Positions 85 through 54,615 of a DNA stretch of 64,000 bases are shown in pieces (position 1 is the stretch's first letter; the number at the start of each line of letters is the position of its first letter). The translations under genes and the position numbers were made by a program. A model generated the notes under the pieces. It saw nothing but the letters and a program-made list of their open reading frames with translations, had not been told where the DNA came from and did no database searches. The stretch is taken from NCBI RefSeq assembly GCF_058153355.1, contig NZ_CM177019.1; one strand, 5' to 3'.

Positions 85-1041
85 TTAAACCACCCGATCC
101 AGCCCCAACATGCCGCGAGCCTGAATGAAACAGAGCAGCAACGTTCCCCATAAGGCCATCGTCAGGTAGGGGCTTATCCCGAGAATATTGAAGCCGCTTT
201 CAATAATTTGCAGAAGAAACAGCGCCAGCACCATACCAATTATCCGCCCGCTGCCGCCGTCCGGATTAACCCCGCCAAGTACTGCCGCGAGGATTGACAC
301 CAGCAAGTACGATTCGCCATAAGAGGCCTTAGCCGAGTTGAGTTTCGACATCATCAAAAATGCCGCTACCGCACAAAGCAAGGCGGAAATGACATAAACC
401 CAAATCAGCACCCGACGAGTGTTAATGCCGGAGTAAAGTGTTGCTCGTTCGTTAGAACCAATCAGATAAATGGCTTTACCGAGCGGCGTTTTCTCCAGCA
501 ATACCCACAGTCCCAGTGCCACTGCGGCAAACAACCACATCGGTAGCGGAATACCGAACCATTGCGCATGATTCAACCACAGCACCCATGAGGGATAATT
601 GGCAATGGCGCTACCGCCTGTCACCAGAATATTTACCCCCTTGAGCAACGTCATCATCCCAAGCGTTGCAAGAATTGGCGACACTCGAATACCAGCAATC
701 AATACGCCGTTACATAAACCGATTATCACCGCCGCGCCAGCGCCCGCCAGCAGCGTAGCGACAACCGTAGCAATACCCGGTGGATACTGAGTCGCCACCC
801 ACGCCATCACCAGTGAACAGGCGTTAGCAGTGGCAATAATTGACAAGTTAATGCCACCGCAAAGCATGGTCACCGCCATAGCCAACGCCAGAATGCCCAG
901 CACGGGCATTTGCGAAGCGACGGACTGGAAATTACTTATCGACCAGAAAATCTCCGGCATAGTAATGCTGAAGGCGGCAACAGTTAGCACCAGCAGGCCG
1001 ATCAAGTAAAACTCAACGTTATTACGCCACGATTTTTTCAT
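85..1041 (-). CDS. Sugar ABC transporter permease (CUT2 ribose/AI-2 type, LsrD/YjfF-like)
   Basis: ORF 85..1071 is hydrophobic and multi-spanning. Likely start is the ATG at 1039-1041 (MKKSWRNN...), overlapping the upstream gene's TGA as ATGA (translational coupling). Fourth gene of a binding-protein/ATPase/permease/permease operon. Confidence 0.8.
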   Translation of the reverse strand: MKKSWRNNVEFYLIGLLVLTVAAFSITMPEIFWSISNFQSVASQMPVLGILALAMAVTMLCGGINLSIIATANACSLVMAWVATQYPPGIATVVATLLAGAGAAVIIGLCNGVLIAGIRVSPILATLGMMTLLKGVNILVTGGSAIANYPSWVLWLNHAQWFGIPLPMWLFAAVALGLWVLLEKTPLGKAIYLIGSNERATLYSGINTRRVLIWVYVISALLCAVAAFLMMSKLNSAKASYGESYLLVSILAAVLGGVNPDGGSGRIIGMVLALFLLQIIESGFNILGISPYLTMALWGTLLLCFIQARGMLGLDRVV

Positions 1042-2009
1042 AGCAGACTCCGGTTCTGATGCTGACTCCACGCCGTGGCGCTAATGCTGGCAACGATGAT
1101 GATGCCTGTGATCAATGTTTGCCAGTAAGACGAGACTCCCAATAAATTTAGCCCGTTTTGCATCACAGCCAACAACACCACGCCGAGCAAAGTACCGGTT
1201 AACGTGCCGCGCCCGCCGAGCAAACTAGTGCCGCCAAGCACCACCGCAGCCAGTACTGTCAGCTCATAACCCAGAAGAGAATCGGGGGCGACAGTCATCA
1301 CCGTCCACGACTGCACTACCCCCGCAGCACCAGACATCAATCCCATATAGCCGTAAACGAAAAGTTGCAGTTTCAGCACGCTAAAGCCGATGCGACTGGC
1401 TGATTCACGGTTCCCGCCAAGGGCATAAATTTTGCGCCCTACACTGGTGAAATTCATGATAAACGCTGTCAGCAGCACCACCGTAATCATGGCGATCAGC
1501 GGCAGACCAAGGCCATAGTCATAGCCGTCAACATCGGTGTACTTGAACAACATTACCCCCTGCTCAAACCACGGCGGAAAGTCGTACAGCCACACACCTT
1601 TACTCAACCATAACAGCAGGCCATAGAAAATATTCAGCGTCGAAATGGTGATGATGATAGAAGGCACCCGTAGGCGATTAACCAGTAAGGCGTTTATTAA
1701 GCCAAGTAAAATGCCGATGCCGCCCGCCAGGGCAAACGCGACAGCAAAGTTGCCACCCATTTTTTGCAGCAACAGCACCATGCCGTATTGCGCAATGATG
1801 GTCATTGCTGGAAACGAAATATCAATTCCACCGGAAATTAACACCACAAACAAACCACAGGCGAGAATAGTCAACATGGCATAGTTATTGGCGAGATCGT
1901 ACAAATTACCGAATGTCAGAAACTCGTCGCTGCGCCAGGCAAGGCCAACAAACAGCACTATAATCAGTAATGCCAGCCAGAATTCATGGCGTTTTTTCAG
2001 TTCAGCCAT
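1038..2009 (-). CDS. Sugar ABC transporter permease (CUT2 type, LsrC/RbsC-like)
   Basis: 323-aa hydrophobic ORF, 8-bp overlap with the upstream ATPase gene; typical RbsC-family composition. Confidence 0.8.
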   Translation of the reverse strand: MAELKKRHEFWLALLIIVLFVGLAWRSDEFLTFGNLYDLANNYAMLTILACGLFVVLISGGIDISFPAMTIIAQYGMVLLLQKMGGNFAVAFALAGGIGILLGLINALLVNRLRVPSIIITISTLNIFYGLLLWLSKGVWLYDFPPWFEQGVMLFKYTDVDGYDYGLGLPLIAMITVVLLTAFIMNFTSVGRKIYALGGNRESASRIGFSVLKLQLFVYGYMGLMSGAAGVVQSWTVMTVAPDSLLGYELTVLAAVVLGGTSLLGGRGTLTGTLLGVVLLAVMQNGLNLLGVSSYWQTLITGIIIVASISATAWSQHQNRSLL

Positions 2010-51178: not shown

Positions 51179-52099
51179 ATGAAAACGGTTTCGATAAAAC
51201 ACACTTACTGGGATATAGCTGCTGATATCTATTTCCCTGACGATTTTAATAGTGAAAAAAAGTATCCTGCCATTATCAGTGCCCATCCAATTGGAAGCTG
51301 CAAAGAACAGACATCGGGTAGTGTGTATGGTGCCGCCCTGGCAAAAGCTGGCTTTATCGTCATTGCTTTTGATGCCAGTTTTCAGGGAAGCAGCGGTGGA
51401 GAACCGCGTTATCTGGAAGATCCAACAATGCGAGTAAAAGACTTCAGCATTGTCGTTGATTACCTTACCACCTTACCTTACGTTGATGCCGGGCGTATTG
51501 GTGTACTGGGTATTTGTGGTGGAGGTGGATATGCCATTAATGCCGCAATGACAGAACGTCGGATTAAAGCCATTGGTACTGTCACGGGTGCTAACTACGG
51601 GCGTCTTATGCGTGAGGGATTTACAGCGTTTAATCCTATCGGAGCACTCGAAGCAATGGCGCAACAAAGAACAGACGAAGCTAACGGCGCAAAACTTCGC
51701 GTAGATGATTTGCTCCCTTCTTCTCCGGAAGCAGCTCTTGAAGCGGGATTAACAGAAATAGACCTTTTTGAAGCAACAGAATATTATCGTTCGCCACGAG
51801 GCTGTGCGCCTAATGGGGTAAATCGTTCGCTATTTTCACATCAGACTGTTGCCGTGGGCTGGGATGCTTTTCATCTTGCAGAAGTCCTGTTAACTCAACC
51901 ACTAATGGTTGTAGTGGGCGATAGAGTGGGCGCTTTTGGTGCCTATCGTGACGGCTGCGAAATTATTGGTCGTGCAGCCTCAAAACATAAAGAGTTGGTC
52001 GTGGTTGAAGGTTATTCACATTACGACCTGTATGATAAGCCAGAACCTGTGAAACAGGCGCTCGATAAATTAATTCCTTTTTACAAAACACATTTGTAA
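51179..52099 (+). CDS. Alpha/beta-hydrolase-fold protein (dienelactone hydrolase-like)
   Basis: 306 aa; nucleophile-elbow-like GxCxG (LGICGGGG) consistent with a Cys/Ser hydrolase. Confidence 0.65.
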   Translation: MKTVSIKHTYWDIAADIYFPDDFNSEKKYPAIISAHPIGSCKEQTSGSVYGAALAKAGFIVIAFDASFQGSSGGEPRYLEDPTMRVKDFSIVVDYLTTLPYVDAGRIGVLGICGGGGYAINAAMTERRIKAIGTVTGANYGRLMREGFTAFNPIGALEAMAQQRTDEANGAKLRVDDLLPSSPEAALEAGLTEIDLFEATEYYRSPRGCAPNGVNRSLFSHQTVAVGWDAFHLAEVLLTQPLMVVVGDRVGAFGAYRDGCEIIGRAASKHKELVVVEGYSHYDLYDKPEPVKQALDKLIPFYKTHL

Positions 52100-52271: not shown

Positions 52272-53414
52272 ATGATAAATAAACACCCATCATTGTTTTC
52301 TCCTTTTATGCTGACAGAAAAAATAAAGCTACGTAATCGTATCGTTATGGCCCCTATGACGACCTGGTCAGCTAATCCTGATGGAACCATCTCTGAGCAA
52401 GAACTCGAATTTTATAAACGTCGCTCACAAAATGTTGGTTTAGTAATAACAGGATGCACCTATGTCACGCCAAGCGGCATTGGGTTTACTCATGAATTTG
52501 CCGCATATGACGACCGTTTCATTAACAGCCTTGAAAAGTTAGCTGCTGCAGCCAAAAGTGGCGGTGCTCCGGCTATTTTGCAGATTTTCCACGCCGGTAA
52601 TAAAGCCATCCCGGAGCTTGTGCCAAATTACGATGTTATTAGTGCCAGCGCATCAAGCGTAAAATCTGGTGACTTTATGAAGAGAGTGGTACAAAGCAGG
52701 GAAATGACTGAAAACGAAATTCAGGAAACCATTAGAGCATTCGGAGATGTCACAAAAAGGGCGATTAAAGCAGGTTTTGATGGCGTTGAACTTCATGGTG
52801 CGCACGGATTCCTTCTGCAGAATTTCTTCTCCCCTCTATTTAACCAGCGTAATGACCGATGGGGAGGAGATCTTGAAGGACGTATGCGCTTCCCGCTGGC
52901 CGTATTACAGGAAGTAAAAAATGTAGTCTATGAATATGCGAAAAAGCCCTTTGCCATCGGTTACAGAATATCTCCTGAAGAATCTGTAACAGGGGGGCTG
53001 CGGATAGAGGATACTTATAAACTCCTTGATCGGCTCATTTCATCCGGTATTTCGTATATACATACCTCGCTGGTCAGTATTAACGATAGCTACCCTGTTG
53101 AGTCGCCAAATGGCCCCCGAACTATTGAATTGATTTTAAATCATATTGCAGGCAGAGTGCCGGTAATCGCCGCAGGTAAAATACGCACACCGTCTCAGGC
53201 TCAAGAAGCAATTTCCGCTGGCCTGCCACTTGTTGCGATCGGTAAAGGGCTGGTGATAAATCCAGAATGGGTGACTTTAGCTGAATCAGGTAGAAGTCAT
53301 GAAATTCAAACAGCCCTTAATCCACAACGCGTTCCTGAATTAACCATTCCGGATAAACTATGGGATCAAATTCAGGCATCGAAAGGAACTGGCTGGTTTC
53401 CGTTAATGGATTAA
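52272..53414 (+). CDS. Old-yellow-enzyme family NADH:flavin oxidoreductase (NemA-like ene-reductase)
   Basis: 380 aa; OYE motifs (VMAPMTT, GFDGVELHGAHGFLLQNFFSP). Confidence 0.8.
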   Translation: MINKHPSLFSPFMLTEKIKLRNRIVMAPMTTWSANPDGTISEQELEFYKRRSQNVGLVITGCTYVTPSGIGFTHEFAAYDDRFINSLEKLAAAAKSGGAPAILQIFHAGNKAIPELVPNYDVISASASSVKSGDFMKRVVQSREMTENEIQETIRAFGDVTKRAIKAGFDGVELHGAHGFLLQNFFSPLFNQRNDRWGGDLEGRMRFPLAVLQEVKNVVYEYAKKPFAIGYRISPEESVTGGLRIEDTYKLLDRLISSGISYIHTSLVSINDSYPVESPNGPRTIELILNHIAGRVPVIAAGKIRTPSQAQEAISAGLPLVAIGKGLVINPEWVTLAESGRSHEIQTALNPQRVPELTIPDKLWDQIQASKGTGWFPLMD

Positions 53415-53885
53415 ATATCTATTACTCTCCCGAGAGTAAAACTATCAAACCAATGAGTAACCGATACAGCCTCGCAAATTCTTTCAGATAATTAACCCGT
53501 CACTGCGGCACGTTCTCTCATAAGGCGTGCCTGCTGTGTAATCCAGTATGTATCCGGCATACTTGACGGTTTAATAGAACTCAATTCCTTTCCCAGGTTA
53601 CCAACAACGATATCTTGTATAACACCCCAGGAGATACGACATTATGATGAGATGAGGTATGCTCCTCAGCGCCAATCAGCGCCAGGGCTGGGCCAGTTTG
53701 AGATCAGACTCATTCCCGGACTGACTTCAGGCGACATATATCAATGACGTTGGGGCAATAAAAGATAGCCGATGTAATACATCTATTCAAATTTGTGATA
53801 CATGTCAAAAAATTGGTTGACCAAACTCGTTATTTATATAAGGGCACTTACGAAGTGCACTCTTTTTTAAAGCGAGGAAGTACCA

Positions 53886-53987
53886 ATGAAAGAGAATAAA
53901 GTACAGCAAATCAGTCATAAACTGATTAATATCGTTGTTTTTGTCGCAATTGTAGAATACGCCTATTTATTTCTCCATTTCTATTAA
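53886..53987 (+). CDS. ykgR: Small membrane protein YkgR (33 aa)
   Basis: Not in the ORF track (below 60 aa). ATG at 53886 preceded by gaggaag; encodes MKENKVQQISHKLINIVVFVAIVEYAYLFLHFY with one hydrophobic helix; position next to ykgM matches K-12. Confidence 0.65.
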   Translation: MKENKVQQISHKLINIVVFVAIVEYAYLFLHFY

Positions 53988-54321
53988 TAACGGCAATAAA
54001 CTGTTCACTTCAGTGATATTTAAAATATGCATCCTCTCCCTTTTTTTTAAGTAATTATTATATCCGTGGGAGAGGAATACACGCTGTCAGGTAATCAATC
54101 AAACTGCGATAAATCATCGGCCAGTAAAGTGGAGATAGCCTCCATTCTCGAAAAATTCATACTCTCAGCGAAACCATCATCAATCACTCATCCAGGCGTT
54201 TATGGGAGCGTCGCCAATGGCTGCTAACAATGCCAGACTTCCCCGTTGCCGAAATTCCACATACCACAAATGGTCACAGGGATTGGGTGTTGAAATGATC
54301 CGGATGAGCATGTATCTTTAC

Positions 54322-54341
54322 GGTTATGTTATAACATAACA
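54322..54341. promoter_or_regulatory. Zur box upstream of ykgM-ykgO
   Basis: Palindrome GGTTATGTTATAACATAACA about 10-30 bp upstream of the ykgM start; matches the Zur operator consensus core TGTTATA.TATAACA. Confidence 0.7.
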
Positions 54342-54351
54342 GGTAAAAATG

Positions 54352-54615
54352 ATGAAACCCAATATCCATCCTGAGTATCGTACTGTGGTGTTCCATGACA
54401 CCAGTGTTGATGAGTACTTTAAAATCGGCTCGACTATCAAAACAGACCGTGAGATTGAGCTGGATGGCGTAACGTATCCGTACGTGACAATTGATGTCTC
54501 TTCGAAATCGCACCCGTTCTATACAGGGAAGCTGAGAACAGTGGCATCAGAAGGAAATGTTGCACGGTTCACCCAACGTTTTGGTCGTTTTGTTAGCACG
54601 AAAAAGGGGGCGTGA
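54352..54615 (+). CDS. ykgM: Zinc-independent ribosomal protein L31 paralog (type B)
   Basis: 87 aa from [13 protein letters not shown]31 family without the CxxC zinc ribbon. Confidence 0.85.

Follow-up and report, generated by a model that had tools for sequence, protein, structure and literature searches.

The window, a stretch of 64,000 nt of DNA, carries an oxidoreductase gene (ykgP), ykgR, ykgM, ykgO, ykgL and the genes ecpR-ecpA-ecpB-ecpC in this order, an arrangement that is the same in strains H1 and H26 and is mirrored in K-12. The reading frame of interest begins with ATG and encodes a product of 33 aa, MKENKVQQISHKLINIVVFVAIVEYAYLFLHFY. Its position is that of ykgR in K-12, between the ykgP remnant and ykgM-ykgO, co-directional with ykgM-ykgO and near the fdeC/eaeH region. 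When the two loci were compared, protein, length, Shine-Dalgarno sequence, leader and place upstream of ykgM-ykgO were the same, and no differences were present in the gene itself. The loci differ upstream of ykgR, where the window keeps intact genes for an alpha/beta hydrolase and an NADH:flavin oxidoreductase, whereas K-12 keeps only a 90-bp remnant of ykgP. The oxidoreductase gene is also reduced to a remnant, or is absent, in strains H1 and GF4-3 and in the clade of a divergent lineage labelled as E. coli (L004). In E. albertii, the upstream neighbour of ykgR is a divergent gene of 362 aa on the minus strand, about 760 nt away. Coordinates of the features described below are collected in Table 1.

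Table 1. Coordinates, in the window, of ykgR and of the elements that accompany it.
Feature	Position	Strand	Basis or remark
Conserved promoter/leader block travelling with ykgR, 115 nt	53771..53885	+	Alignment identity
Weak sigma-70 candidate TTCAAA-16-AAAAAT, 8/12	53786..53813	+	Scan; implied start near 53820, hairpin mid-leader
CRP-like candidate site TGTGAtacatgTCAAA	53794..53809		One mismatch to TGTGA-N6-TCACA; lead only
Alternative weak sigma-70 candidate TTGGTT-18-TATAAG, 8/12, without T at the last -10 position	53813..53842	+	Scan; implied start at or within the hairpin
Hairpin GCACTT-ACG-AAGTGC, 6-bp stem, 3-nt loop	53844..53858	+	Scan, folds
Tail ACTCTTTTTT; T6 run begins 4 nt past the stem	53859..53868	+	Sequence
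Shine-Dalgarno GAGGAA	53874..53879	+	Sequence; GAGG core ends 8 nt upstream of ATG
ykgR coding sequence, 33 codons and stop	53886..53987	+	ORF list, NF041474, K-12 identity, annotation, dN/dS
Inverted repeat CCTCTCCC...GGGAGAGG, 46 nt past the ykgR stop, T8 run in a 27-nt loop	54033..54075	+	Fold

The first-pass annotation of this sequence had proposed that a 33-codon frame with a good ribosome-binding site encodes a single hydrophobic helix and matches ykgR of K-12, and each part of this proposal was borne out. The frame starts with ATG, 8 nt past the GAGG core (Table 1), and the Shine-Dalgarno sequence is invariant in an alignment of E. coli, E. albertii and the L004 clade. Residues 1-12 of the product are polar and include three Lys (mean Kyte-Doolittle value -1.6), and residues 13-33 are hydrophobic (mean +1.9) and contain the one predicted transmembrane segment. 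The protein was 100% identical, at 33/33 residues, to YkgR of K-12 (b4671; tblastn, NC_000913.3 313141..313242), and position x of the window corresponds to position 367128 - x of K-12 on the minus strand. It also scored 78.1 bits (E = 2.6e-22) against the NCBIfam equivalog model NF041474, 'small membrane protein YkgR', for which the cut-off is 40, and the alignment ran from end to end, covering all 33 residues and all 33 profile positions. A Pfam profile search with the 33-aa protein gave no match; a precomputed label, PF28062:YkgR, exists for YkgR. A 401-nt query around the gene found matches in 5072 of 5426 complete E. coli genomes, where the annotation beneath the match reads ykgR. Identity and gene order thus place the window in E. 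coli.

A 33-codon frame is no evidence by itself, because the same 3-kb stretch around ykgR has 45 ORFs with 20 aa or more that lie in it or reach into it. The frame is significant because of its identity to the K-12 gene, the family model, the annotation and its conservation. Judged by these sequence comparisons, it is ykgR itself, a catalogued gene for a small inner-membrane protein of E. coli, which is said to have been first reported by Hemm et al. in 2008, in Mol Microbiol 70:1487. The gene had been described as unlisted, and this is correct for the ORF list, which was cut at 60 aa, and incorrect for RefSeq, which annotates the frame as 'small membrane protein YkgR'. Since ykgR is a known gene for which annotation and experimental work already exist, the finding, though correct, is an ordinary one; the sequence by itself was enough to recover a real gene shorter than the 60-aa cut-off.

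We monitored the distribution of ykgR at 80 loci around ykgM homologues, taken from species-representative genomes and searched by both tblastn and blastn. Matches to YkgR by tblastn were seen in E. albertii (88% aa identity) and in the L004 lineage (85%), with 33 codons in both cases. YkgR was absent by tblastn from the other 78 loci, which came from Enterobacterales, Vibrio and others, and blastn with a 217-nt module agreed with this result. A scan of 1.84 billion representative proteins for YkgR returned only E. coli-type fragments and chimeras. One apparent divergent homologue (P0009, 66% identity) was rejected as an artefact, since the assembly is full of single-base indels across the locus and ykgM is also unreadable there.

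Variation within the genus was assessed using 104 copies of ykgR, made up of 100 metagenome stretches found by a pattern scan together with the genome loci. The 33-codon frame was intact in 101 of the 104, the reference protein was encoded by 89, and the variants seen were conservative (for example V6I, Q8K, H11N, I16V, F19L and I22V). The C-terminal VEYAYLFLHFY segment was invariant in the three lineages aligned. Conservation in related genomes, on which the earlier proposal had been staked, was found in E. albertii and in two other, cryptic, Escherichia lineages (L004 and L111), where the 33 codons are kept and pairwise dN/dS values across Escherichia range from 0.08 to 0.26; none was found outside the genus. 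On the strength of these substitution ratios, we conclude that ykgR is under purifying selection, and among the loci and proteins searched it is found only in Escherichia. The selection lends indirect support to translation of the frame at its native locus.

Alignment also delimited a conserved block of 115 nt immediately upstream of the coding sequence. Identity of this block to E. albertii and two clades was 85-97%, compared to 90-95% for the coding sequence, 57-70% further upstream and 68-76% downstream, and homology of the window to E. albertii and to strain GF4-3 begins abruptly near 53768-53771. No canonical sigma-70 site or -10 hexamer was detected in the block by scanning, and the best candidates matched at 8 of 12 positions (Table 1). 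E. albertii and the L004 clade have the same TTCAAA and AAAAAT hexamers as the first candidate, which falls below the standard scan threshold. No start site for ykgR is entered in the SMRT-Cappable-seq tables or in those of Romero 2014. The half-sites of the CRP-like sequence are invariant across Escherichia and its spacer is variable; matches to the CRP consensus with one mismatch occur in the window at chance level (2 found versus 2.3 expected). Visual inspection of the upstream sequence for sigma-54, sigma-E or sigma-28 promoters gave readings that were discarded, as their spacing was wrong or they were not conserved. The intergenic region of ykgR has been marked as bound by H-NS (PMC3946193).

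Within this block lies a small hairpin followed by a run of six T residues. The first-pass annotation had located the two at 53843-53867; hairpin and tail are real, and the coordinates were one base low, the true ones being 53844..53868. The hairpin folds with -6.2 kcal/mol (z = -2.7 versus shuffles), has three G-C pairs in its 6-bp stem and lies 16 nt before the Shine-Dalgarno sequence, and the ATG follows the T-run at a distance of 17 nt. A hairpin also forms at this position in E. albertii (-8.3 kcal/mol, with an extended stem that abuts U6) and in the L004 clade (-4.5 kcal/mol). The three Escherichia lineages share CTCTTTTTT without any change, and the GF4-3 and L163 alleles have a shorter tail. 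An Rfam search gave only noise, far below gathering scores.

Substitutions in the stem were then considered pair by pair. In E. albertii, the pair A46-U56 is replaced by G-C, a compensatory change on both sides, while G44-C58 becomes a G-U wobble, as it does in L163, and U48-A54 becomes a U-G wobble, as it does in L124, so that pairing is kept. Pairing is broken at U49-A53 in E. albertii, which has C-A, and at U48-A54 in L004, which has U-C. Overall, E. albertii changes 5 of 15 hairpin positions, four of these being among the 12 arm positions, and across the alignment 95% of cells are paired, with one compensatory pair, four wobble cells and two breaks, a result that 77 of 500 shuffles also reach. 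The A-U to G-C change and the wobble variants are suggestive, and only suggestive, of pairing at the level of RNA. An inverted repeat of 6+6 nt could also act in DNA, as an operator for a dimeric repressor just downstream of a promoter; operators often lie in such a place, and the adjoining palindrome TTGGT-TG-ACCAA (53813-53824) is also conserved. However, the variants that keep pairing use the G-U wobble, which is complementary in RNA and not in DNA, the changes in E. albertii fall largely in the arms, and no known binding-site consensus was matched. We therefore regard an operator as extremely unlikely.

In some alleles the hairpin is damaged or missing. Strain GF4-3 carries G44A and a deletion of CTCT. 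A deletion of 13 nt (TATATAAG/TGCACTC), which takes out the hairpin, was seen in two contigs from metagenomes and, among complete genomes, in at least five; ykgR is intact in every case, and strain SCU-172 (NZ_CP054353.1) is one carrier of the allele. The hairpin is thus dispensable, since complete genomes with the deletion keep ykgR intact, and it could be neutral. It might indeed have no function at all and be a palindrome that arose by chance in the AT-rich leader and persists only through the close kinship of the Escherichia lineages. By chance alone, 53300-54500 should contain one such site, the covariation is not significant, and the L004 clade and GF4-3 have disrupted pairs, which would all be in keeping with such an origin, as would the deletions. 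On the other hand, three lineages retain the stem at one position even with the changes in E. albertii, which include the double compensatory one and those that preserve pairing by wobble, and the deletion alleles are rare, amounting to at most 9 of about 5070 records. We consider a hairpin of no function unlikely, though far from negligible.

The hairpin resembles intrinsic terminators and leader attenuators in that a stem-loop is followed by six U residues. It differs from intrinsic terminators in its 6-bp stem, in the ACUC between the stem and U6, and in standing in front of a ribosome-binding site instead of behind a gene. A stem of 6 bp with three G-C pairs and -6.2 kcal/mol clears a lenient scan but is weak for an intrinsic terminator. 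A working terminator at this site would stop read-through from the upstream hydrolase and oxidoreductase genes and insulate ykgR. It is the sole terminator-like site on the plus strand between the oxidoreductase stop (53414) and ykgM, its T-run is invariant across Escherichia, and the version in E. albertii is the stronger one and closer in appearance to a genuine terminator, with the stem placed directly against U6. However, the hairpin does not lie at the end of a co-directional transcription unit, being 430 nt past the nearest upstream stop codon, and in E. albertii no co-directional gene lies upstream. It is kept there all the same, and also in K-12, H1, GF4-3 and the L004 clade, in which the oxidoreductase gene is a remnant or absent. 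Moreover, it lies downstream of the conserved promoter-like block, so that an efficient terminator would also silence ykgR. A consensus scan of 53300-54500 found one terminator-like site compared to 0.9 +/- 0.8 in shuffles, which is not beyond chance, and the 4-nt gap before the T-run adds to the weakness of the stem. No RNA 3' end tagged ykgR, or located at K-12 313240-313299, is present among the Term-seq entries listed (PMC7815308), a negative result of little weight, as the locus may be poorly expressed. We find a terminator of the upstream genes improbable. The word 'terminator-like', as used in the first-pass annotation, holds for the shape of the element; a working terminator for a preceding gene is not supported, the element being weak, no more frequent than chance and situated inside the ykgR block. 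A terminator reading on the minus strand was dropped, as no T-run follows the hairpin on that strand.

The same elements could form a regulated attenuator in the ykgR leader, in which most transcripts, initiated near 53820, would end at 53868 unless a condition or factor allowed read-through, or they could release a leader RNA of roughly 45-50 nt. With the conserved TTCAAA-16-AAAAAT candidate as promoter, the hairpin would span about +24 to +49, conservation of the leader block matches that of the coding sequence, and YkgR has been described as condition-dependent, induced in stationary phase or by stress. Many 5' UTRs of E. coli contain 3' ends (PMC7815308). Against this, the Term-seq entries listed in that study include no 3' end at the site, Rfam finds nothing, the candidate promoter is only an 8/12 match and the terminator is weak. 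There is also no conserved alternative anti-terminator. The only competing helix pairs CUCUUUU (53860-66) with AAAGAG (codons 2-4) and would enclose the ribosome-binding site; seen in the fold of E. coli, it is missing from the L004 clade, has no covariation behind it and was set aside as a chance pairing. Attenuation, or release of a leader RNA, is in our estimation distinctly improbable. A fuller version, in which the block is a regulated and possibly CRP-responsive leader whose hairpin and U6 attenuate transcription or release an RNA of about 45-50 nt, must be counted a long shot; if it were true, a membrane protein confined to Escherichia would be made conditionally on read-through.

We conclude that the hairpin most likely belongs to the conserved leader of ykgR itself, as far as alignments can tell. 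It is assigned to the ykgR unit because the block is as conserved as the coding sequence and both flanks decay, and because the hairpin is kept in E. albertii despite the divergent upstream neighbour, with the same left boundary in GF4-3. With the hairpin inside the block and only 16 nt away from the ribosome-binding site, a transcript specific to ykgR has to begin either upstream of the hairpin or within it. We favour, at close to even odds, a leader stem-loop of ykgR with a modest role, rather than a terminator that ends a gene. The ykgR mRNA would carry a small stem-loop at its 5' end or close to it, the start site and the role of the stem-loop both being deduced, and the invariant U-rich tract would serve as an unstructured spacer ahead of the Shine-Dalgarno sequence. 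The stem-loop may modestly affect mRNA stability or translation, and would be at most a leaky terminator. Stem-loops at the 5' terminus can stabilise bacterial mRNAs, as in the ompA 5' UTR. The ykgR hairpin resembles that type in being a short stem-loop near the presumed 5' end, followed by an unstructured U/A-rich stretch and a Shine-Dalgarno sequence; it is unlike it in that a position within a few nucleotides of the 5' end is, for ykgR, a presumed one. For the account as a whole, that of the known ykgR gene with the hairpin as part of its own leader, we estimate a probability of about 0.85, with the identity of the gene near-certain and the reading of the hairpin only moderately secure.

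A second structure is present beyond the gene, where the inverted repeat listed in Table 1 contributes to a fold of -23.6 kcal/mol for 53985-54095 (z = -2.7). E. albertii and the L004 clade retain the arms in altered form. No U-run follows the repeat on the plus strand. The repeat is a possible 3'-end structure of the ykgR transcript.

Published work provides an outline of the behaviour of YkgR, which has been termed a stationary-phase-induced small membrane protein (PMC10502375). The protein is detectable after expression from a plasmid and cross-links to SRP in vitro even after release with puromycin, and this cross-link after ribosome release supports post-translational recognition by SRP (PMC7549839). 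Spontaneous insertion of YkgR was not seen in work with liposomes (PMC12648545). RseP cleaved YkgR in 4/4 assays, including those with chromosomally encoded RseP in vivo and with the purified enzyme in vitro, such cleavage is typical of type II proteins, and RseP substrates are generally N-in/C-out (PMC10470546). A review that cites Fontaine et al. 2011 places the N-terminus of YkgR in the cytoplasm and its C-terminus in the periplasm, and mentions its use as a periplasmic fusion tag (PMC7558204).

Together, these reports suggest a path for the protein. The short, positively charged N-terminus would face the cytoplasm and the aromatic C-terminus would lie in the periplasm, in line with the review (PMC7558204). 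According to published work, translation of a protein of this size ends before SRP is able to catch the nascent chain, so that SRP binds after release from the ribosome. Delivery would presumably be to SecYEG or YidC, by analogy with YohP, which was tracked through the whole pathway in the same study (PMC7549839). RseP, an intramembrane protease, removes the protein later.

YkgR shares with YohP, YoaJ, YshB, AcrZ, MgrB and CydX a length of less than 50 aa, a single transmembrane helix and a history of being missed by size cut-offs. It differs from them in having no sequence relationship to any of these proteins and in being found only in Escherichia. Partners are known for AcrZ, MgrB and CydX, and by analogy we infer that YkgR may bind and tune a larger membrane protein through the invariant VEYAYLFLHFY segment, with its buried glutamate. 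In its handling by the cell, YkgR resembles YohP in post-translational recognition by SRP (PMC7549839), and it resembles YshB, Blr and HokB in being a substrate of RseP (PMC10470546).

The hairpin ahead of ykgR is subject to natural variation, and one allele lacks it altogether. In this allele 13 nt (GGCACTTACGAAG, window 53843..53855) are missing; the hairpin is lost with them, and ykgR itself is undamaged. The deletion, a rare natural variant, was found in two metagenome contigs (L085 and L180) and in five or more complete E. coli genomes (H38-H42), and it provides material that is ready for testing whether the hairpin matters. In strain GF4-3 (L185) a change in the stem, G44A, is combined with deletion of CTCT, and the tail is reduced to an A and T5. 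A substitution at the first base after the stem, A59G (window 53859; GTGCACTC to GTGCGCTC), is a common polymorphism, being present in 23 of the 104 sampled copies of ykgR, and E. albertii carries the variant base at the same position.

A 34-aa protein that had appeared to be a divergent YkgR (P0009, a hit with 66% identity) was rejected as spurious, as it comes from an assembly (L184, GCA_900603405.1) with pervasive single-base indels. It now stands as the representative of its own cluster in the protein collection.

What lies to the left of ykgR differs between lineages. In the E. albertii locus (L003), ykgR has as its upstream neighbour an unrelated ORF of 362 aa that contains proline-rich repeats (591..1679, minus strand), indicating that the ykgR module lies in a different left-hand context there. 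The GF4-3 sequence, aligned to window 53726..53968, has an upstream flank that is unrelated to the window beyond ~53768, and this left boundary of homology is common to GF4-3 and E. albertii. The arrangement seen in the window, with intact hydrolase and oxidoreductase genes, was present in 2114 of 5426 complete E. coli genomes. In K-12 the oxidoreductase gene is cut to its final 90 bp, annotated as the pseudogene ykgP. As the window carries this gene at full length, ykgP is a remnant left by a deletion.

Features in the neighbourhood of ykgR (window coordinates)
Feature	Position	Remark
Alpha/beta hydrolase gene	51179..52099	intact; upstream of ykgR
NADH:flavin oxidoreductase gene (Pfam PF00724)	52272..53414	intact; upstream of ykgR
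CRP-like site TGTGAtacatgTCAAA	53794..53809	within the conserved ykgR upstream block
Inverted repeat CCTCTCCC...GGGAGAGG	54033..54075	begins 46 nt past the ykgR stop
ykgM promoter TTGAAA-17-TATCTT	54290..54318	hexamers as in PMC3946193 for ykgMO
Perfect palindrome GTTATGTTATAACATAAC	54323..54340	after the ykgM promoter, shortly before the ykgM start (54352)

The promoter hexamers given for ykgMO in PMC3946193 are those of the ykgM promoter in the window. PMC11705850 describes suppressors that gave a ydgH deletion strain back its tolerance of detergent; one of them is a T-to-C change between ykgM and ykgR. The arms of the inverted repeat downstream of ykgR, which enclose a 27-nt loop containing a T8 run, persist with altered bases both in E. 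albertii and in the divergent E. coli-labelled clade L004. No U-run follows this repeat on the + strand, and a canonical terminator was therefore ruled out. The half-sites of the CRP-like site are invariant across Escherichia and its spacer is variable; the match is statistically at chance level within the window. Finally, the palindrome preceding ykgM has the appearance of the Zur operator that serves the operon of L31/L36 paralogues used in zinc starvation.
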